NCBI GenBank assembly: GCA_028865725.1
Contig: JAGWJP010000002.1
Coordinates: 104,050-168,049, forward strand
From: Patescibacteria group bacterium
GTDB lineage: Bacteria; Patescibacteriota; Minisyncoccia; UBA6257; JACRHW01
DNA: 64,000 bases
Direction: 5' to 3'
Part shown: positions 1,228 to 61,155 of the stretch, in pieces
How positions within the stretch are numbered: the stretch's first letter is position 1
Layout: each line of letters opens with the position of its first letter
Notes under the pieces: model-generated
What the model was told of the DNA's origin: nothing
Seen by the model: only the letters and a program-made list of their open reading frames with translations
The model's database searches: none
Position numbers and translations under genes: made by a program

Positions 1228-4200
1228 TTATTGGATCATATCGCGAAGAGTGCAGTACTCACAATCCTTTTCTTCACATCGCACATCCCAAAACGATAAA
1301 TGAAGAACATCGGTAGCCATGTGTTTAATCTCCTCCTCTAATCCCCGTACATCTTCTTCGGTAATATCAAAACATTCTTTTTTATAGATTCCGCGCTCGT
1401 TCGGCTCCAAAAAATCAATCTCTCCCGAGGTCATACGATACCGCCCTTGTTCATAGCGATCAAGCAGAAGTTTATAAAATACTAATTGTCTCTTATAATC
1501 ACCATTCCCATCTTTTGTCAAACCTTCAATGGCGTTCCTCGACATAGGCTTTTTCGTTTTGTAATCAACCACATTTACTCCGTTTCCTACTCCAAGCTCT
1601 ACCTTATCGATACGACCCGCAAGCTTCACCGGTGTGAACTCATCCGAAACTGATAATGTGGCCCCCTCCACAAAAAACTCAGTTAATACGTTTATATTCC
1701 ACGTGTTTTTATAATACTCGTAATATCCACGCAACGCATCTTTTCCACGCACCAGAAAATCCTGATACTGCTCTCCGGAAAGTGAAGTTTTTCCTAACTC
1801 ATACTCGAACGCACCAAGCACCATTTCCGGAGTGACAGGATCCCCCTTTCTGAGCCGCATGAATAACATATTCATGGCCGCATGTGCAGCGATACCATAG
1901 AGTGCGATAGGCACCTTCGCCCGGGGAATACGCAATAAGTCGCTATAAAAATACTTCCAAGGACACTCACGGTAATGGTTAAGTGCCGTCGGAGAGATAC
2001 CACGTTCCTCGAAACACTGCGCAATAAACTTTTTTTCATAAATTGATTCCGGCGTTACCATGCGTGGTGTACACAATAATTCTGATACTTCAGAAGACTC
2101 ACTTGCGTGATGCGCAGTGCAGTCTATGGTTTCTTTGTGTGTGGGATCAATTTCGCCAATAAATTGGGACGGGAGCATCTCCGCCCCATCAGCAGTGTGG
2201 GTAGCATAGCTTATCACGAGACGCTTTGCGGCACGAGTAAGCGCCACATAAAAAATGTGACGCTCATCATCATTGCGATTCCCCTCACGTTCTTGTTCCC
2301 CTACCCCTGCACGCGAAACACTAAACTGTTCGCGATTCCTTCTATTCCCCCAGTGTCCGTCGGTAACACCAATCATATACACATAATCAAACTCGAGTCC
2401 TTTTGCCTTATGCACCGTCATCCCACGCACCCCTCCCGTATGTGCACCGTTTTTTGCGCCCTTGATTACCAGGTTATGCGCCTCGACCACATCAAGATAA
2501 TGAATAAGATCGCGAAGACGACATCCAGGATTTCCTTCCTCGAGACGTTCTATTTCCTGAAACAATACTTTTATTTTCGAAAGTTTCGCAGCAGCATCTG
2601 GGCGCGCAAGGATAAACCCAAGAAGCCCAGAATCACGAATAACGTTTTCACACAATTCACTTGCGCTAATGCGCTCTGCGCTCTCTGCCCACGCGCGCAT
2701 ATTGCGCCCCCAAGAAAGAAGCGCATCGCGCGACTCGTACATAGGATCGTCTTCGCGGGACAACCTCGCGAGCACGCCGTAAATACCGTCACGCGTATTA
2801 TGCGCAGTAACAATCACGCGATAGACATCAAGCGGGTGAATTCCAAAATAAGGAAGGTGCAGTGCACGCGCAGCCCACTCTCCTTCTCCAAAATAATGGA
2901 TAGCCTTTAATACGACAAGGAGATTCTTTACGTCAAGATCATCAAGCACATTGTGATCAGACTGGATGGAAAACGGGATCCTCATCTTTTCAAACACATG
3001 TGCCACCGCCACCACATCGTTATTATCGCGATACAACACCGCGATCGACTCGGGCGAAACGCCGTGGTCAAGAGACTCCCGTATGTCATACCCCAAAAAA
3101 TAATACTCGTCTTCCGGCGAATAGTACGCATGAATTTCTACCTGTTTTCCTGTTCCTTGACGTGCAGCACGAAGCTCATGATTGAGATCATTATCACCTT
3201 CTCCTTTGGTAATAAGACTATGCGCAGCATCAAGAATCTTCTGCGTAGAGCGATAATTGTCCTCAAGCGTAATCGCTTTGGCGTGCGGATACTTCTCGAG
3301 AAAATAGAGAAAATTTTGAAGCGACGCGCCCTGAAAACGAAAAATCGCCTGCTTTGCATCTCCCACAATAAAAATATTGGGGTGGGGATCGTAATTAACA
3401 AGCAAGTCGAGAAGCGTGTTTTGTGCATTGTTCACATCTTGATGCTCGTCTGCCAATACATAATGGTACTGTTCCTGAAGCATTAAAAGAAGATTGCTAT
3501 CAAGCGCCAATGCACGCACTACCTCAAGAATCATATCGTTGTAGTCATAGCGTTTTCGTTCTTGCAACATCTGTTCATACTCTGCGTACACAATTCCCAA
3601 CTCCCTATTTTTCTCAAGCGCATGCTCCTGCTTTACATATTCTGACTTCATCTTTCCTTTATGCGCGCCTTTCGTATGGTAGAGATCATCACGCGAAAGA
3701 AACACCTCTTTCTCCTTTGCAGTTTGTGTAGCAAATACATCTTCAGTAACTCCCTCGCGTTTTAACTCTGCAAGAGCGCGTATAATGCCCCGCGCATAGT
3801 AGAGTGGATCTCCCGCAGGCCGCAAAAGAGAAAGTGGTGCATGCGCGACAATCTCCTCGATATATTCAAACTGCTCTGCCTCGGTGATGTGCGTCGCCCC
3901 GATGATGCGCGGGAAGGATTCTGGATACGCTTGAATGAGATCGTTACAAAATTTATGAAACGTAGCGATCCGCACCCCGTATGCCGCGCTCCCCACCACA
4001 TCAAAAAGCCGCTTCCGCATATTGGCAGCGGCAGCATCGGTAAAGGTAAGCGCCAAGATACTCGAAGGTGCGGTATCAGTGCACTTTAAGATGTTTGCGA
4101 TGCGAAGCGTAAGCACCTTTGTCTTTCCCGTACCAGGCCCTGCAAACACCACCACGGGCCCCTCAATTGCATCGACTGCTTTGCGCTGTTTTGTATTAAG

Positions 4201-4236
4201 CTTTTCGTATTCTTTTTGAAAAACAATATTTTTCAT
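1228..4236 (-). CDS. UvrD/PcrA-type superfamily 1 helicase fused to C-terminal PD-(D/E)XK (Cas4/AddB-like) Fe-S nuclease
   Basis: 1002 aa; Walker A GPGTGKT near N-terminus, DEHQD Walker B-like motif, UvrD motifs (VGDAKQAIFRFQGA, YRS, HKAKGLEFD, VALTRA); C-terminal domain with one Cys in RECPWKYF plus a CEEKDCEYC cluster, as in Cas4/AddB iron-sulfur nucleases. Confidence 0.8.
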   Translation of the reverse strand: MKNIVFQKEYEKLNTKQRKAVDAIEGPVVVFAGPGTGKTKVLTLRIANILKCTDTAPSSILALTFTDAAAANMRKRLFDVVGSAAYGVRIATFHKFCNDLIQAYPESFPRIIGATHITEAEQFEYIEEIVAHAPLSLLRPAGDPLYYARGIIRALAELKREGVTEDVFATQTAKEKEVFLSRDDLYHTKGAHKGKMKSEYVKQEHALEKNRELGIVYAEYEQMLQERKRYDYNDMILEVVRALALDSNLLLMLQEQYHYVLADEHQDVNNAQNTLLDLLVNYDPHPNIFIVGDAKQAIFRFQGASLQNFLYFLEKYPHAKAITLEDNYRSTQKILDAAHSLITKGEGDNDLNHELRAARQGTGKQVEIHAYYSPEDEYYFLGYDIRESLDHGVSPESIAVLYRDNNDVVAVAHVFEKMRIPFSIQSDHNVLDDLDVKNLLVVLKAIHYFGEGEWAARALHLPYFGIHPLDVYRVIVTAHNTRDGIYGVLARLSREDDPMYESRDALLSWGRNMRAWAESAERISASELCENVIRDSGLLGFILARPDAAAKLSKIKVLFQEIERLEEGNPGCRLRDLIHYLDVVEAHNLVIKGAKNGAHTGGVRGMTVHKAKGLEFDYVYMIGVTDGHWGNRRNREQFSVSRAGVGEQEREGNRNDDERHIFYVALTRAAKRLVISYATHTADGAEMLPSQFIGEIDPTHKETIDCTAHHASESSEVSELLCTPRMVTPESIYEKKFIAQCFEERGISPTALNHYRECPWKYFYSDLLRIPRAKVPIALYGIAAHAAMNMLFMRLRKGDPVTPEMVLGAFEYELGKTSLSGEQYQDFLVRGKDALRGYYEYYKNTWNINVLTEFFVEGATLSVSDEFTPVKLAGRIDKVELGVGNGVNVVDYKTKKPMSRNAIEGLTKDGNGDYKRQLVFYKLLLDRYEQGRYRMTSGEIDFLEPNERGIYKKECFDITEEDVRGLEEEIKHMATDVLHLSFWDVRCEEKDCEYCTLRDMIQ

Positions 4237-4343
4237 ATCCTTTTCACTATATCGATAAATCTAAAAAAGAAAAACCCCGCGTACTGTGAAACGAGTATAC
4301 GCCTGATTACGCCTCACCCCTGCGATAAACCAAGAATTGAAAC

Positions 4344-4916
4344 CTAAAACAGTGCTTCCTGAGGATTGATATCGAGCGACCAGCCCCAATCGAAATCAAA
4401 GGTGACCCCTGGCGGATTAAATTTGTCGGGCACAAAGAGCTTCTTTTTATCAAGCACGAACTCATACAACTCTTTAGTAATCTTTACGTCGTTCAAGCAG
4501 TAGTGCTTGAGCTTCTCGATCTCTCCGCTTCTATAATATTCGATCGCATCGAGCCCTTTTCCGTTTTTTCCTGAATGCAAATTGGCTTCGCACAATACGC
4601 CAAGCCCTACACGGCGCCCCAGCTTTTTCTTTACTTCCTCGAACATATCAAGCGTTTTAATTTTTCCGATATTTGTCTTAAAGTATTTTCTCATCACGGG
4701 AATATCAAACTGATCCACCGCAAATCCGATGATAAGCTCTGTGTGCGCAAGTAGAGGCTCTAAGCGATCAAATTCATGCTCTTCGAGACCAAGATACTGA
4801 TCTTTTGCATAAGAATACACGCCGATGAGCGACGCATCAAGCTTCTCTACATTACGCTCTCCCCCTACATCATTAAATGTATTTTTGGTTTCAATATCGA
4901 TTACGAGACGATCCAT
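4344..4916 (-). CDS. DEDD-type 3'-5' exonuclease (RNase H-like fold, DnaQ-like)
   Basis: 190 aa; N-terminal DIET acidic motif, later FD..V and C-terminal HYCLNDV motif consistent with DEDDh exonucleases. Confidence 0.55.
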   Translation of the reverse strand: MDRLVIDIETKNTFNDVGGERNVEKLDASLIGVYSYAKDQYLGLEEHEFDRLEPLLAHTELIIGFAVDQFDIPVMRKYFKTNIGKIKTLDMFEEVKKKLGRRVGLGVLCEANLHSGKNGKGLDAIEYYRSGEIEKLKHYCLNDVKITKELYEFVLDKKKLFVPDKFNPPGVTFDFDWGWSLDINPQEALF

Positions 4917-4963
4917 ATGACTTGATGATAAACCGCCAAGGTTTTGTGATTAGGAATTATTTT

Positions 4964-5478
4964 TTATGATGCCACAATTCCTTTAGAAACTCCATGCACC
5001 ATTTCTTCAATGCGCCGAGTCAATGTATTCAATAGAGCTTTGTTGTGTGCTTCGATGTGTACACGCAACAAATCTTCCGTACTCGAAGGACGCACATTGA
5101 TGCAAAAATCATGCCCTTCAAGGGTAAGCCCGTCGAGATGAGAAACATATGCCATGTTCCCAAATGCTGCCTCTATGCGTGATATCATCGCTTCCTTGCC
5201 TTTCACGTTATAATTCAATGTTGGTGAATGCGGACGCATATCAAATAACTCCATCGTTTCAACAAGCACTTCTGGTACATAAATCGCAATATTCATAATC
5301 TTAAAAAACACGAGAATACCCGAATCCGCATTAAAAACTCTCTAAAATAATAATGTCCCGACCACTCAGCGCCACCCCATACCGCAACGTCCTTGAACTT
5401 CGCTCTAAAATGCGGTCCTCCTACACGTGTTAATACAGGCTTTGCGACAGAGACTTTTTTAAGTTCCTCGCGCGCCAT
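4964..5478 (-). pseudogene. Phosphoglucomutase/phosphomannomutase remnant (domains III-IV only, frameshifted)
   Basis: ORF 5293..5478 encodes the GGAEWSGHYYF sugar-phosphate loop (domain III GEESGH motif). Overlapping ORF 4964..5311 in another frame encodes NVRPSSTEDLLRVHIEA (domain IV RPSNTEP motif). No room upstream for domains I-II with the catalytic phosphoserine. Confidence 0.6.
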
Positions 5479-5513
5479 AAGAACGCCGGCAAGATCAGCG
5501 CGTATATAATCCT

Positions 5514-5924
5514 TTAATGCGGAATCACATTAGAGATGAGCGCACTCCACCAAGAAGGAGACGCTTCTGCGACATGAGGCACTATGGCAGGGGAGGACGA
5601 CGGAGCATTCACGACAATAATCACCTTCTCCCCTTTTTGCTGTACATTCAGCTCTTCCTTTGCCTTTTCTTCAAGATGAATAGGGTCGTGATACCAATCT
5701 ACTTGCTGCTGCAATACGTTATGTTCGATGGTTAACTTTTGTTCTTCAGCGTGGATCCGATTTAATTCACGAGACAGATCCGCATACTCACGATACCGAT
5801 CCCATGTATGGCGCATCACGATAAGCGTAAACAAAAACAAGCTAATGATAGGAAGCCATCGAAATAAGGCGTGAAATCGTTGCATAAAAAAGATATGAAA
5901 CAGCTCTTGGCATAGATACTGCAC
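5514..5924 (-). CDS. FtsB/DivIC-like septum formation initiator (TM + coiled coil)
   Basis: 136 aa; single N-terminal TM helix followed by a coiled-coil segment and the DP.HLEEKAKEELNV..KGEKVII region typical of FtsB family. Confidence 0.5.
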   Translation of the reverse strand: MQYLCQELFHIFFMQRFHALFRWLPIISLFLFTLIVMRHTWDRYREYADLSRELNRIHAEEQKLTIEHNVLQQQVDWYHDPIHLEEKAKEELNVQQKGEKVIIVVNAPSSSPAIVPHVAEASPSWWSALISNVIPH

Positions 5925-16057: not shown

Positions 16058-17818
16058 CTATTCAATTGATTTGAGAGAAGCAGCAATAGAGCGACGGAGC
16101 GCATCAATCTCCTTTTCTTTTTCTTCTCCTGCATTTTCTAATGGCATAGGGTTGTTGTGTGCGAAAGGGGTGAGCAGCGCATCTAACTGTGGCGCATGAT
16201 ACACAGTTGTTTCGACCACCGGTGCTGCGCCACCTTCCACGCTCTCAGCCACTGCCAGTGTTGCCGGAATCGAATCCTCTGACGTCGCAACCACTGGACG
16301 CGTTGCGCGGGGACGCGTGGGCGGAATAATCTTTCCCGCCTGGATGAGCTTGAGGCAGTTTTTGCAATATACAGGACGTTTTGGATCTGGCTGAAATGGA
16401 ATTTGCGTCTCCGTGCCGCAATTCCAGCAAATTGCCGAATACATCGCGCGTTGCGAATCGGGCTGACTCGAATGCGAAGCATCCGGAGCAACTCCACCCT
16501 CTCCCTGCATAGATGCTTCTTTATCAGACATGAATACGGTGCTCAACCATTCATTAATAATCTCATCTACGCGTTCACGAGGCACGGAATACGTGGCATA
16601 GGTATAGCGTAAAATCTCATTGCGAAAACTCACCTCGGGAAGAGGAGTGGGAGGAAGGGTTACTGCAGAAAACGCGGGCGATGTAGCTCCATCAATCATA
16701 AGTTTCATCGCCACCTGTGCCCGCGGCAAGTTCACAAAATCGTTGACCACAAAAACAGGAAACATTTCTTTTTCAAACAGCTCTGCATCATCAGGCCCAA
16801 TGCGAAACACCATCATCGTCCCCACGTTTCCCACAATCGCATCGCGTACTGTTTCGTCCATCTGTGAAATATACTGGTTTGCCACGATAAGATTGAGGTG
16901 AAATTTCCGCGCCTCAGCAAGGATAGAGGCAAAGGCAGGCGTTGCAAAATGTTGAAACTCATCGATATATAAATAAAAATCCTTGCGATCTTTTTCGTCG
17001 GGTATATCGATGCGGCTCATGGCAGCAAGTTGGAGCTTAGTCGTAAGGAGGGCACCTAAGATCCTGCTATTATCTTCGCCGATTTTCCCGCGCGAAAGAT
17101 TCACTAAAAAAATGGACCCTTCATCCATAATTTTCCGAATATCAATCGTCGAATGCGGCTGACCTACAATATTTCTAAGAAGCGGGTTCATGGTAATCTG
17201 ACCAATCTTGTTCTGAATAGGCGCGATCGCTTCGGTTTGAAACTGCTCTTTGTAGCGCGCAAACTCTTTCGTCCAAAAATCGCGTATCAAAGGATCGGTA
17301 AGCTGGTCGATCACGTATTTGCGATAATCCTTATCGTTCAACAAGCGCATGATACCAAGCAGGGTCGCATCAGGAATTTCAAGAAGCGCCATAAGGCAAT
17401 TATTAAGAATATACTCCATACGCGCCGACCATACATCAGGCCAAATCTTCTTAAACACGCTCATAAGTCCCGAGGCGACAAGGTGGCGCCTATCCGGCGT
17501 TACATTTTCCATGGGATTAAACGCGATCGCCTGATCAAGCACGGAAGGATCAAAATAGATCACATCCTTGATGCGATTCTCGGGAACAAAATCGAGTAGT
17601 TTTTCTACTGAATCGCCGTGAGGGTCAATAAACGCAAGCCCTCTCCCCGCAACCATATCTTGAATAGCCATATTTTCCAGCAAGACGCTTTTTCCCATGC
17701 CGCTCTTCCCGATAATATACGTGTGGCGCCTCCGATCATCCTCTCGGATACCAAAACGCACCCGTTGATTGCGGAAATTTGTTTCTCCTAATATCAGATC
17801 AAAAGTACTTTCTGCCAT
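16058..17818 (-). CDS. DUF87/TraD-VirD4-like P-loop ATPase with C-terminal CxxC-x16-CxxC zinc ribbon
   Basis: 586 aa; Walker A IIGKSGMGKS at residue about 35, IDPHGD motif, Walker B-like YLYIDEFQ; no N-terminal TM; C-terminal CWNCGTETQIPFQPDPKRPVYCKNC. Confidence 0.65.
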   Translation of the reverse strand: MAESTFDLILGETNFRNQRVRFGIREDDRRRHTYIIGKSGMGKSVLLENMAIQDMVAGRGLAFIDPHGDSVEKLLDFVPENRIKDVIYFDPSVLDQAIAFNPMENVTPDRRHLVASGLMSVFKKIWPDVWSARMEYILNNCLMALLEIPDATLLGIMRLLNDKDYRKYVIDQLTDPLIRDFWTKEFARYKEQFQTEAIAPIQNKIGQITMNPLLRNIVGQPHSTIDIRKIMDEGSIFLVNLSRGKIGEDNSRILGALLTTKLQLAAMSRIDIPDEKDRKDFYLYIDEFQHFATPAFASILAEARKFHLNLIVANQYISQMDETVRDAIVGNVGTMMVFRIGPDDAELFEKEMFPVFVVNDFVNLPRAQVAMKLMIDGATSPAFSAVTLPPTPLPEVSFRNEILRYTYATYSVPRERVDEIINEWLSTVFMSDKEASMQGEGGVAPDASHSSQPDSQRAMYSAICWNCGTETQIPFQPDPKRPVYCKNCLKLIQAGKIIPPTRPRATRPVVATSEDSIPATLAVAESVEGGAAPVVETTVYHAPQLDALLTPFAHNNPMPLENAGEEKEKEIDALRRSIAASLKSIE

Positions 17819-22860: not shown

Positions 22861-22988
22861 TGTGCCCCCAGTAGGCTCGGTCACAAGTTTGCCTTCGGGC
22901 AACTCGCGACCCCGCCTCCCCGCCCCGGGCAGGTCCGGCTTTCGAGTCCAAACGTGAGTGAAATCATTCACTCACTCTGTGTGCACTC
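22861..22988 (-). mobile_element. tRNA-Lys-associated miniature element: 113-bp insert bounded by 15-bp direct repeat of the tRNA 3' end, with conserved core shared with the tRNA-Asn locus
   Basis: TGTGCCCCCAGTAGG at 22861..22875 repeats 22989..23003 (tRNA-Lys T-stem/acceptor 3' half). Internal core CGGTCACAA-hairpin-TCGCGACCCCGCCTCCCC...GGTCCGGCTTTCGAGTCC matches 60927..61005. Confidence 0.55.
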
Positions 22989-22990
22989 TG

Positions 22991-23063
22991 TGCCCCCAGT
23001 AGGACTCGAACCTACGACCGTTTGCTTAAAAGGCAACTGCTCTACCAACTGAGCTATAGGGGC
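22991..23063 (-). tRNA. tRNA-Lys (anticodon UUU)
   Basis: 73-nt cloverleaf on minus strand: acceptor GCCCCTA/TGGGGGC, D-arm GCTC-AGTTGGTA-GAGC, anticodon loop CTTTTAA, T-arm GTAGG-TTCGAGT-CCTAC, discriminator A; CCA not encoded. Confidence 0.9.
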
Positions 23064-32476: not shown

Positions 32477-32743
32477 ATGAAAATGCTGTTCCTTTTGATG
32501 ATCCTTTGGCAATTTGTAACGGCGGGCGTGGCGGTGAAGCTCCTGTGGGGATGGTTCATTACTCCCTTCGGACTTCCTGCGCTCTCGGTGGCGCACGGGG
32601 TCGGGATTGCGATTCTTGCATCCTTCTGCACCATACAATACATCCCCCGGACGGACGAAGAACAGCGAAAAGCTTTTCTCTTTGAAACCCTTCTGCCCCT
32701 CCTCGCAATCGCCTGCGGATTCATTGCTCACTTGCTCATGTAA
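32477..32743 (+). CDS. Small hydrophobic membrane protein
   Basis: One of the few plus-strand ORFs; three predicted TM segments; followed by a strong bidirectional terminator. Confidence 0.4.
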   Translation: MKMLFLLMILWQFVTAGVAVKLLWGWFITPFGLPALSVAHGVGIAILASFCTIQYIPRTDEEQRKAFLFETLLPLLAIACGFIAHLLM

Positions 32744-60907: not shown

Positions 60908-61079
60908 TTGGCTCCGGCGGCAGGATGCGGTCACAACTTTTTCGCTACGCGAAAAGTCGCGACCCCGCCTCCCCATCGACAAGCTCAGGGTCCGGCTTTC
61001 GAATCCTGACGAAAGCAAATACATTTGCTTTCTCCTCCTCAAAACCAATACAAAATACCTCACAAGGAGGTATTTTGTA
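60908..61079 (-). mobile_element. tRNA-Asn-associated miniature element: 153-bp insert bounded by 19-bp direct repeat of the tRNA 3' end, core shared with tRNA-Lys locus
   Basis: TTGGCTCCGGCGGCAGGAT at 60908..60926 repeats 61080..61098 (3' end of tRNA-Asn incl. CCA). Core CGGTCACAA-hairpin-TCGCGACCCCGCCTCCCC...GGTCCGGCTTTCGAATCC. Includes an 18-bp terminator-like hairpin 61041..61080. Confidence 0.55.
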
Positions 61080-61080
61080 T

Positions 61081-61155
61081 TGGCTCCGGCGGCAGGATTC
61101 GAACCTACGACCATCTCGTTAACAGCGAGCCGCTCTACCACTGAGCTACGCCGGA
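61081..61155 (-). tRNA. tRNA-Asn (anticodon GUU), CCA encoded
   Basis: Minus-strand cloverleaf: acceptor TCCGGCG/CGCCGGA, D-arm GCTC-AGTGGTA-GAGC, anticodon loop CTGTTAA, T-arm GTAGG-TTCGAAT-CCTGC, discriminator G + CCA. Confidence 0.9.

Follow-up and report, generated by a model that had tools for sequence, protein, structure and literature searches.

A protein-less element with a conserved three-way junction and target-matching arms behind tRNA and tmRNA genes of Patescibacteria and Elusimicrobiaceae

Introduction

Integration between the T-loop and the 3' end of a tRNA or transfer-messenger RNA (tmRNA) gene, with a repeat that restores the gene, is an established signature of site-specific integrative elements, and Williams is said to have described in 2002 a T-loop sublocation for the elements that target these genes. 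Here we describe a non-coding element of about 100–170 nt that lies downstream of tRNA and tmRNA genes and carries a direct and an inverted copy of the 3' part of the gene beside it. It occurs twice in a 64,000-nt stretch of contig JAGWJP010000002.1 (assembly GCA_028865725.1, positions 104,050 to 168,049), hereafter the window, which belongs to a metagenome-assembled genome of the Patescibacteria/Parcubacteria. One copy follows a tRNA-Asn gene and the other a tRNA-Lys gene. Coordinates refer to the window unless a locus denoted by an L number is named.

The closest described systems each share part of this arrangement. Tyrosine-integrase islands and prophages, together with integrase-less cis-mobilizable elements (CIMEs), have the same target from the T-loop to the 3' end, keep the gene intact, carry a flanking direct repeat, accrete in tandem and differ in presence between relatives. 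In contrast to these, the element has neither a protein nor a parent that we could find, is tiny, forms a strand-specific three-way junction, holds an additional inverted copy of the target, and changes its arms while its core stays constant. Integron attC sites and the CTX-phage attP(+) hairpin, on which the host XerCD acts (integrative mobile elements exploiting Xer, IMEX), resemble it in conserving the structure of a variable helix over its sequence, in an extrahelical base and in folding on one strand, as well as in a duplex that imitates the partner site, in regeneration of the target and in tandem arrays; the recombinase acts in trans there and, by analogy, may do so here. The element nevertheless lacks the R/L box consensus of attC (RYYYAAC / GTTRRRY), its conserved ends being AAAGCC... 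and ...UUGUGAC, and it differs from both in targeting a tRNA or tmRNA gene rather than attI or dif and in having about 40 invariant core nucleotides. Neither intI nor a cassette context was found around it, among the open reading frames (ORFs) of the window or at the 133 loci whose neighbouring genes are compared below.

The bridge (seek) RNAs of IS110/IS1111 are likewise structured, element-encoded non-coding RNAs, and in both cases segments complementary to each target strand would set the site. Bridge RNAs adjoin the gene of a DEDD (RuvC-like) recombinase, use internal loops and leave a 2-nt core repeat, whereas the target-matching arms of the element are terminal and no DEDD recombinase ORF is adjacent to it. 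MITEs (miniature transposable elements with inverted repeats) and the palindromic repeats (Correia, RPE, REP/BIME) resemble the element: they are short and non-coding, rich in hairpins, present in many copies and non-autonomous. A MITE, however, has constant terminal inverted repeats derived from its parent insertion sequence and a target duplication of 2–10 bp, whereas the inverted repeats found here are copies of each target (11–31 nt) and the duplication is variable, up to 32 nt.

A description of the element was not found in full-text literature searches, in which the nearest subject was the group I introns that interrupt tRNAs of Patescibacteria in the anticodon loop. These introns are longer than 200 nt, lie at position 35/36 and match group I models (PMC13011429). 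They share with the element the phylum and the association of an RNA element with tRNA genes, but the element is shorter, at about 90 nt, lies outside an intact tRNA and gives no intron-model match. The family is unexplained by any described family.

Results

Two copies of one family in the window

ARAGORN and Rfam place the tRNA-Asn(GTT) gene at 61081-61155 and the tRNA-Lys(TTT/UUU) gene at 22990-23063, both on the minus strand. The parts of the two copies are as follows; S' stands for the inverted copy of the gene, in two parts, S'a and S'b, and P0 to P3 denote helices.

61081..61155, minus strand: tRNA-Asn(GTT), target and neighbour (ARAGORN; Rfam tRNA, 68.7 bits)
61080..61098, minus strand: direct-repeat copy 1 (sequence; the longest stretch in common with the tail, 19 nt)
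61049..61079, minus strand: A/U-rich hairpin followed by a U-run, terminator-like (sequence; same arrangement at other loci)
61034..61048, minus strand: S'a, imperfect inverted copy of the tRNA acceptor 3' strand and CCA (UUGGUUUUGAGGAGG)
61011..61032, minus strand: P0 hairpin (GAAAGCAAAUGUAUUUGCUUUC) (sequence and fold; equivalents in many copies)
61000..61008, minus strand: S'b, the 5' strand of P1 (CAGGAUUCG) (covariation of P1; covariance-model alignment)
60930..60999, minus strand: three-way-junction core (RNAalifold; pair counts; covariance-model match 60921-61009, 79.1 bits)
60908..60929, minus strand: tail, consisting of an element-borne CGC and direct-repeat copy 2 (AUCCUGCCGCCGGAGCCAA) (sequence)
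22990..23063, minus strand: tRNA-Lys(UUU), neighbour of the first copy (ARAGORN; Rfam)
22954..22975, minus strand: P0 hairpin of the Lys copy (GUGAGUGAAUGAUUUCACUCAC) (sequence and fold)
22871..22952, minus strand: P1-P2-P3 three-way junction of the Lys copy (covariance model, 73.6 bits, E 1e-20)
22861..22879, minus strand: tail of the Lys copy, consisting of CGAG and a 15-nt direct repeat (CCUACUGGGGGCACA) of the tRNA-Lys 3' end

An earlier note on this DNA had reported a 19-bp repeat of the tRNA-Asn 3' end bounding a 153-bp insert, and both are present: the 19-mer TTGGCTCCGGCGGCAGGAT occurs twice, at 60908-60926 and 61080-61098, with 153 bp (60927-61079) in between. The copy on the tRNA side comprises the last 18 nt of tRNA-Asn and one flanking nucleotide. 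The other, AUCCUGCCGCCGGAGCCAA, starts at T-loop A58 and reaches 1 nt past the 3' end, and the tail also supplies the 3' strand of P1. At tRNA-Lys the repeat measures 15 nt and lies at 22861-22875 and 22989-23003, so that both inserts show the arrangement of a tRNA island, a flanking direct repeat of the tRNA 3' part with the tRNA restored. The assignment of the two inserts to one family also held. The common blocks TCGCGACCCCGCCTCCCC and GGTCCGGCTTTCGARTCC have two exact matches each in the window, one behind each tRNA, against chance expectations of 0.02 and 0.06 and with two matches in 0 of 100 shuffles, and the conserved blocks remained confined to the two tRNA loci even when three mismatches were permitted. 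A covariance model, R1, trained on 41 diverse copies other than these two, gave 79.1 bits (E 2e-22) for the Asn copy and 73.6 bits (E 1e-20) for the Lys copy. Its next-best match in the window, 15.5 bits at 32656-32731, falls in an unrelated stretch and was set aside as a chance match.

The variable hairpin differs in sequence between the Asn and Lys copies and keeps its pairing, including one bulged A; the covariation that the note had seen in it is real by RNAalifold and by pair counts against shuffles. In both copies, the A or G of TTCGA(R)TCC agrees with the T-loop of the adjoining tRNA, again as noted. Read on the tRNA-sense strand, this motif is GGA(Y)UCGAA, the reverse complement of the T-loop and the T-stem 3' strand. 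The suggestion that this end of the element is copied from the tRNA therefore stands only in part: the tRNA-matching parts of about 100 further copies, spread over 18 tRNA identities and tmRNA, likewise derive from the neighbour, but the segment near the tRNA is inverted rather than in the same sense. Both arms are templated by the segment of tRNA-Asn that extends from the T-loop to the 3' end. S'b (CAGGAUUCG) is the reverse complement of its T-loop and T-stem 3' strand, and S'a (UUGGUUUUGAGGAGG) pairs with ..CCGGAGCCAA by way of G.U pairs; the minimum-free-energy fold pairs the ends of the element, and the family-wide analysis of S' agrees. P0 branches off between the acceptor-complement and the T-stem-complement. 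The terminator-like hairpin at 61049..61079 forms the apex of the palindrome made by the tRNA 3' end and S'a, and it was not picked up by a simple terminator scan. Between tRNA-Lys and P0 lies AGUGCACACAG (22976-22988, minus strand), which admits two readings: a degenerate inverted copy of the acceptor 3' strand, or a remnant of a deleted earlier copy that partly repeats ..GGGCACAG in direct orientation.

Size and spread of the family

An exact 18-nt core, searched for in a single genome of each species, was matched at 58 loci, of which about 25 are true copies and the remainder chance matches in high-GC genomes. The carriers were Elusimicrobium/Elusimicrobiaceae, WWE3, Morani-, Berkel-, Levyi-, Adler- and Nomurabacteria, Saccharibacteria and one WS2 genome. 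With a looser two-gap pattern, about 105 true copies were found in metagenomes among at least 120 loci. R1 gave 116 matches at E < 0.001 across 100 loci, often several per locus (four each in L028 and L120; three each in L032, L108 and L074). More than 150 copies were recovered overall from Patescibacteria, Elusimicrobiaceae and one WS2 genome.

At the gathering thresholds of Rfam 15, only the two tRNAs passed in the window, and at E up to 10 nothing over the element exceeded 22 bits at either locus, all matches being far under threshold. Neither ARAGORN nor Rfam called a tRNA over the element, whose tRNA-derived direct part is limited to the last 15–25 nt, the 5' arm being inverted. No Rfam family and no tRNA-pseudogene model, the two explanations that the note had named for exclusion, therefore accounts for the sequence. 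A viral origin was also rejected, since the 18-mer core has only one match in IMG/VR, a chance match inside a coding region.

A conserved three-way junction on one strand

On the sense strand the parts follow in the order tRNA or tmRNA gene, a few flanking bases, terminator-like hairpin, S'a, P0, S'b, core and tail, of which the terminator-like hairpin is an optional part of the unit. S'a, the inverted acceptor 3' strand with its flank, is present in many copies. P0 is a hairpin of 7–10 bp, its loop often AACUGCUU, and it often splits S'. S'b is the inverted T-stem 3' strand and T-loop (for example CAGGAUUCGAA), and the tail is a direct copy of the gene from T-loop position 56–58 to the 3' end. 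The family core consists of (A/G)GCC, GGA, P2b, GA, GGC, GG, GGUCGCGA, a variable P3 top and UUGUGAC. In the Asn copy this becomes AAA, P2a GCC, a GGA internal loop, P2b with a variable tip, GA, GGC, GG, the P3 base GGUCGCGA, the P3 top (60937-60956, variable and with a bulged A) and UUGUGAC. A sub-family of 12 loci (L060, L063, L067, L069, L075, L077, L083, L102, L111, L132, L149 and L162) has an extra small tail hairpin (..AGCGUACUCGCG.., loop GUAMUC) between the CGAA that stems from the T-loop and the copied T-stem 3' strand.

The three-way junction is backed by RNAalifold and by explicit pair counts. P1, in which S'b pairs with the tail, covaries (one example pair: AU 16, UA 10, CG 5, GC 2). 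P2a is GCC/GGC, with G.U in 4 of 41 sequences, and P2b covaries strongly (GC 15, CG 13, AU 10). The base of P3 holds two invariant G.U pairs, its top holds six covarying pairs and an invariant bulged A, and about 40 nucleotides of the core as a whole are invariant. The share of paired cells was 90%, as compared with 72% in shuffles and about 40% in slid registers. Cells changed on both sides numbered 243 against 78 in shuffles, none of 500 shuffles being as high, and the covariation score was 0.48 against 0.14, a value reached by 0 of 500 shuffles. Inspected by eye, the topology and junction lengths of the core do not fit hepatitis delta virus (HDV)-like, hammerhead or k-turn readings, which were rejected.

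The sense fold was more stable than the antisense fold in all 128 of the 128 unique copies, by a mean of 12 kcal/mol (Wilcoxon p ~1e-22). The window copies reached −66.5 and −61.3 kcal/mol in sense (z −5.7 and −4.7) and −45.1 and −46.3 kcal/mol in antisense. The structure is therefore selected on the tRNA-sense strand, which could act as a read-through transcript or as the sense DNA. The long ORFs of the window are nearly all on the minus strand and the GC skew is negative over 1-64000, and the window is probably a single replichore with genes co-oriented with replication; if so, the folding strand of the element would be the lagging-strand template. A conserved fold, compensatory changes and strand specificity, which together characterize a structured RNA, are all present, and as a structured RNA the element would form a new family.

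These properties bear on the main rival to a mobile element, a host-beneficial RNA domain that is encoded in cis in the 3' trailer of the tRNA or tmRNA and transcribed by read-through. In such a trailer RNA, P1 would mimic the acceptor/T-stem stack of the neighbouring tRNA, and the alternative pairings of S' with the tRNA and with the tail would act as a switch; possible roles are tRNA 3'-end processing or quality control, control of termination, or that of a decoy or sponge for a tRNA-binding factor. The sense-specific fold in every unique copy speaks for it, as do the invariant nucleotides, the two fixed G.U pairs and the three covarying helices. Furthermore, no promoter-like site was found between tRNA and element in the window, which makes co-transcription likely, the carriers span several Patescibacteria classes, Elusimicrobiaceae and one WS2 genome, and the P1b part of the tail is still paired where the remaining tail has decayed, as in L174. 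On the other hand, the element lies past a terminator-like hairpin, so that most transcripts would exclude it.

Both arms are copies of the neighbouring gene

Nearly all copies have a tRNA gene (18 identities) or a tmRNA gene on the same strand 20–110 nt upstream; in 80 copies the distance from the tRNA is 21–110 nt, with a median of 63 nt. In the fetched loci, an R1 match follows within 200 nt of 82 of the 155 tRNA/tmRNA genes, which represent 17 tRNA identities and tmRNA; the pattern set adds further identities (tRNA-Pro and others) and includes five copies behind tmRNA genes. When the copy by which each locus was fetched is left out, 16 of 63 other cluster-terminal tRNAs are occupied, which indicates that the element is frequent without being obligatory. 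In every case the tRNA stays intact.

The direct repeat begins 0–3 nt past GUGAC in 80 of 80 copies. Its length ranges from about 5 to 32 nt and is at least 15 nt in 30 of these copies, and long repeats stop at the 3' end of the gene or at most 12 nt past it. Because the repeat follows the genomic flank and not the mature CCA end, it must have been copied from the gene sequence or the primary transcript rather than from mature tRNA, and a mature-tRNA primer-binding site, or an origin by reverse transcription, was rejected on the same ground. In older copies only the first 8–10 nt of the tail repeat remain, which is the part that forms P1. The tail variant CGCAUCC is common to Asn, Lys and Ser copies, which suggests that the tail's first nucleotides are element-borne.

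S' is an inverted copy of the 3' part of the upstream gene, including flank outside the tRNA. Its alignment averages 24 nt to the gene and 15 nt to its own tail; it is longer to the gene in 67 of 80 loci and better to the own tail in 10. Perfect stretches of 19–31 nt occur (L174, L169, L077), that of L169 extending over 31 nt with flank included. The inverted orientation is unambiguous at non-palindromic T-loops (GATTTG/CAAATC in L004 and GAATTG/CAATTC in L028), and a simple T-loop target-site duplication on the left was rejected because such T-loops prove that the left arm is inverted. The gene 3' segment is thus present three times, direct, inverted and direct, with the terminator hairpin as one turn and the core as the other. 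That S' is kept complementary to the upstream tRNA together with non-functional flank, over its own tail, counts against the trailer RNA, as a simple tRNA mimic fails here.

S' also offers a guide-like complement of 9–12 nt to T-loop positions 54–64, directly 5' of the conserved junction. This could be expected of a small catalytic RNA, either an intron-like insertion in the T-arm or a cleaver/ligator of the T-loop, in which the junction would be the active site, S' the internal guide and the DNA copies secondary. Patescibacteria are rich in self-splicing introns of tRNA genes (PMC13011429), and the position of the core in L011, right after tRNA-Arg-like positions 1-53, resembles an interrupted tRNA. 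Nearly all copies, however, stand outside an intact tRNA and without its 5' half, their repeats follow gene flanks and not processed RNA ends, and no Rfam ribozyme or intron matches, even at E up to 10. With no linked reverse transcriptase either, and with group II introns reported absent from the phylum (PMC13011429), we consider a catalytic RNA very improbable.

Two loci have unusual layouts. In L011 (3747-4026, from the WS2 genome) the layout is a mirror image: a tRNA-Arg(TCG)-like 5' part, positions 1-53, is followed immediately by the core, and about 20 nt past the tail comes an intact tRNA-Arg(TCG). In L074, when oriented, the 18-nt tail sequence has two matches upstream, at distances of about 53 and 193 nt from the element, and each match adjoins a tRNA-like 3' end (..GTTCAAATCCCGTCCTGGTCTCA) without an ARAGORN call; these ends may belong to a tRNA that contains an intron or is atypical in another way.

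Empty, filled and tandem sites

We compared the synteny of loci around homologues of the SecD protein of the window, which are 76–77% identical. The window has one copy of the element at this place, whereas L182 begins inside at least two perfect 123-nt tandem units, L180 has tRNA-Lys followed directly by secD with no element, and L181 is empty, with an AT-rich spacer only. Tandem, nested and decayed copies were seen elsewhere (L114, L107, L108, L103, L160/L172, L084, L028 and L032), and contigs often begin or end within copies (L182, L097, L136). The sites are thus dynamic, being empty, filled or tandem in relatives, and the active or recently active mobilisation system that the earlier note had proposed as one possibility may be inferred from this polymorphism. 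For the trailer RNA, absence at the same tRNA in relatives and tandem copies in others are unfavourable, as are the many decayed or nested copies and the occupation of just ~25–50% of tRNA-cluster ends, and we regard it as unlikely.

Near-identical cores were found in the sub-family of the window at tRNA-Val, tRNA-Lys and tRNA-Asn (L038, L182 and the window) and at tRNA-Asp and tRNA-Ser in Elusimicrobium (L003 and L013), where the terminator and the P0 loop are common as well; in both sets the arms match each tRNA. This result indicates that the arms must be re-templated from each new target.

In a few copies, other DNA separates the tRNA from the element. It measures 0.4 kb in L014, where it contains a GIY-YIG ORF, and 3.4 kb in L029, where it encodes a two-component system; the inserts of L147 and L143 are smaller. 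Such spacers of unrelated genes are consistent with the copies being scars of integrase-encoding islands or prophages, in which the core, as arm-type sites or a small RNA gene, would have formed the att-proximal end before internal deletions removed the integrase and cargo. The direct repeat from the T-loop to the 3' end and the targeting of both tRNA and tmRNA genes agree with this, and Patescibacteria carry abundant recombinase-encoding elements beside tRNAs (for example at L185). Yet no integrase stands between tRNA and element in any of ~130 loci, the cargo genes are housekeeping-like or mutually unrelated, the tight spacing of tRNA and element in 80 copies would be unexpected from random internal deletions, and arms rewritten for each tRNA around a constant core are unlike a fixed attP. 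Island scars are therefore quite improbable, and they belong with the catalytic RNA among the less likely readings.

Neighbouring genes

ORFs within 5 kb of the element at 133 loci were clustered all against all. The recurrent neighbours were housekeeping families and small GIY-YIG proteins only; the genes that flank the element encode housekeeping proteins such as SecD, a peptidoglycan-binding protein, RluD and L19. Small GIY-YIG ORFs (PF01541) occur in 8 of the 133 loci, mostly upstream of the tRNA or tmRNA (L014:1871-2182 on the minus strand, L069, L077, L100, L107, L117, L147 and L153). In L107, a duplicated 5' fragment of tRNA-Glu upstream of the tRNA adjoins the GIY-YIG ORF. These observations suggest that the GIY-YIG ORFs are a second, independent tRNA-associated mobile unit.

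The earlier note had also looked to an integrase gene carrying the same core, and no such tyrosine or serine integrase was found. In L121 a large serine recombinase gene (3122-4468, minus strand) lies 434 nt from a copy of the element. It was rejected as a partner in cis because six distinct homologous loci have no R1 match within 4 kb, and the association appears to be a coincidence at a common hot spot. Recombinases of this type (Resolvase + Recombinase + Zn_ribbon_recom) have more than 8000 homologues at E < 1e-40, the best 120 of which are 69–83% identical (other loci L184-L196), and sit in prophage-like or restriction-modification-rich Patescibacteria elements. In L185 the recombinase gene (4001-5332) adjoins the 3' end of a tRNA-Ser gene (5444-5531).

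Elsewhere in the window, 16058-17818 (minus strand) encodes a TrwB-like coupling protein of type IV secretion with a treble-clef zinc finger (zf_Tbcl_2). The same domain is found in a 62-aa protein near tRNA-Lys at the syntenic loci L180 and L181.

Discussion

The anatomy of the element, its covariation and strand bias, its linkage to the target and its polymorphism between relatives are direct observations. Taken together, they are best explained by a protein-less element that is mobilised in trans and homes to tRNA and tmRNA genes, at the segment between the T-loop and the 3' end, with the fold as recognition scaffold and the arms as the means of target matching. We assign this reading a probability of roughly 0.45, slightly short of an even chance. 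The choice of target, the gene-restoring repeat, the tandems and the filled/empty polymorphism match, by analogy, the signature of classical integrative elements. No counterpart exists among the compared families for an element that is tiny and protein-less, has a strand-specific junction and both an inverted and a direct copy of its target, and combines a constant core with changing arms; this combination points to a trans-mobilised mini-element that homes to the T-loop.

The insertion chemistry, the active nucleic acid and the partner of the element would, we infer, be as follows. The element would enter within the T-loop, where the ..GUGAC|CGA.. junction would mark the point of recombination or strand joining, and its entry would duplicate the downstream tRNA segment or bring a replacement for it. 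The folded core would be a scaffold read by a factor encoded elsewhere in the genome, while S' and the tail would match the target by base complementarity, the closing helix P1 reproducing the sequence of the target duplex. The active form may be a read-through transcript or a folded single DNA strand.

A more specific form of this proposal is a programmable homing system guided by nucleic acid, which we consider unlikely, though with a substantial chance of being true. Here the junction, either as RNA made by read-through or as the folded DNA of the lagging template, would recruit an enzyme that the host encodes, and the two arms, one complementary to each strand of the 3' segment of the tRNA gene, would select the site and be copied anew at each insertion. 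Such a system would explain how one gene-less core occurs at tRNAs of nearly every identity and at tmRNA.

Several points weigh against trans-mobilisation. Neither a circular or excised form nor an insertion event was seen, and empty sites could result from repeat-mediated loss rather than gain. No recombinase, transposase, nuclease or reverse transcriptase recurs near the element in the 133 loci, Pfam scans of the ~56 window ORFs gave no integrase, transposase or reverse transcriptase, and no autonomous parent element was found; the only recombinase nearby, that of L121, is of a family whose other loci lack the motif. The strong, strand-specific conservation of the fold and its wide spread fit a host-beneficial RNA equally well. 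In addition, the mismatches between S' and the tRNA show no clear excess of G.U (60 G.U against 46 A.C) and so fit an RNA and a DNA form alike, and we know of no mechanism that writes an inverted copy of the target beside an insert.

The repeats of the element break metagenome assemblies at tRNA loci (L182, L097, L136), and its masking or annotation in genomes of the candidate phyla radiation and of Elusimicrobia is advisable and is made feasible by R1. If the element is a host RNA, members of the candidate phyla radiation, in which the processing of RNA is poorly understood, would possess a widespread and uncharacterised accessory of their tRNA genes. If it is mobile, no smaller element homing to tRNA and tmRNA genes would be known. 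Gene-less and with target-matching arms on a conserved fold, it would point to an unknown mechanism of recombination or template copying that may be reprogrammable.

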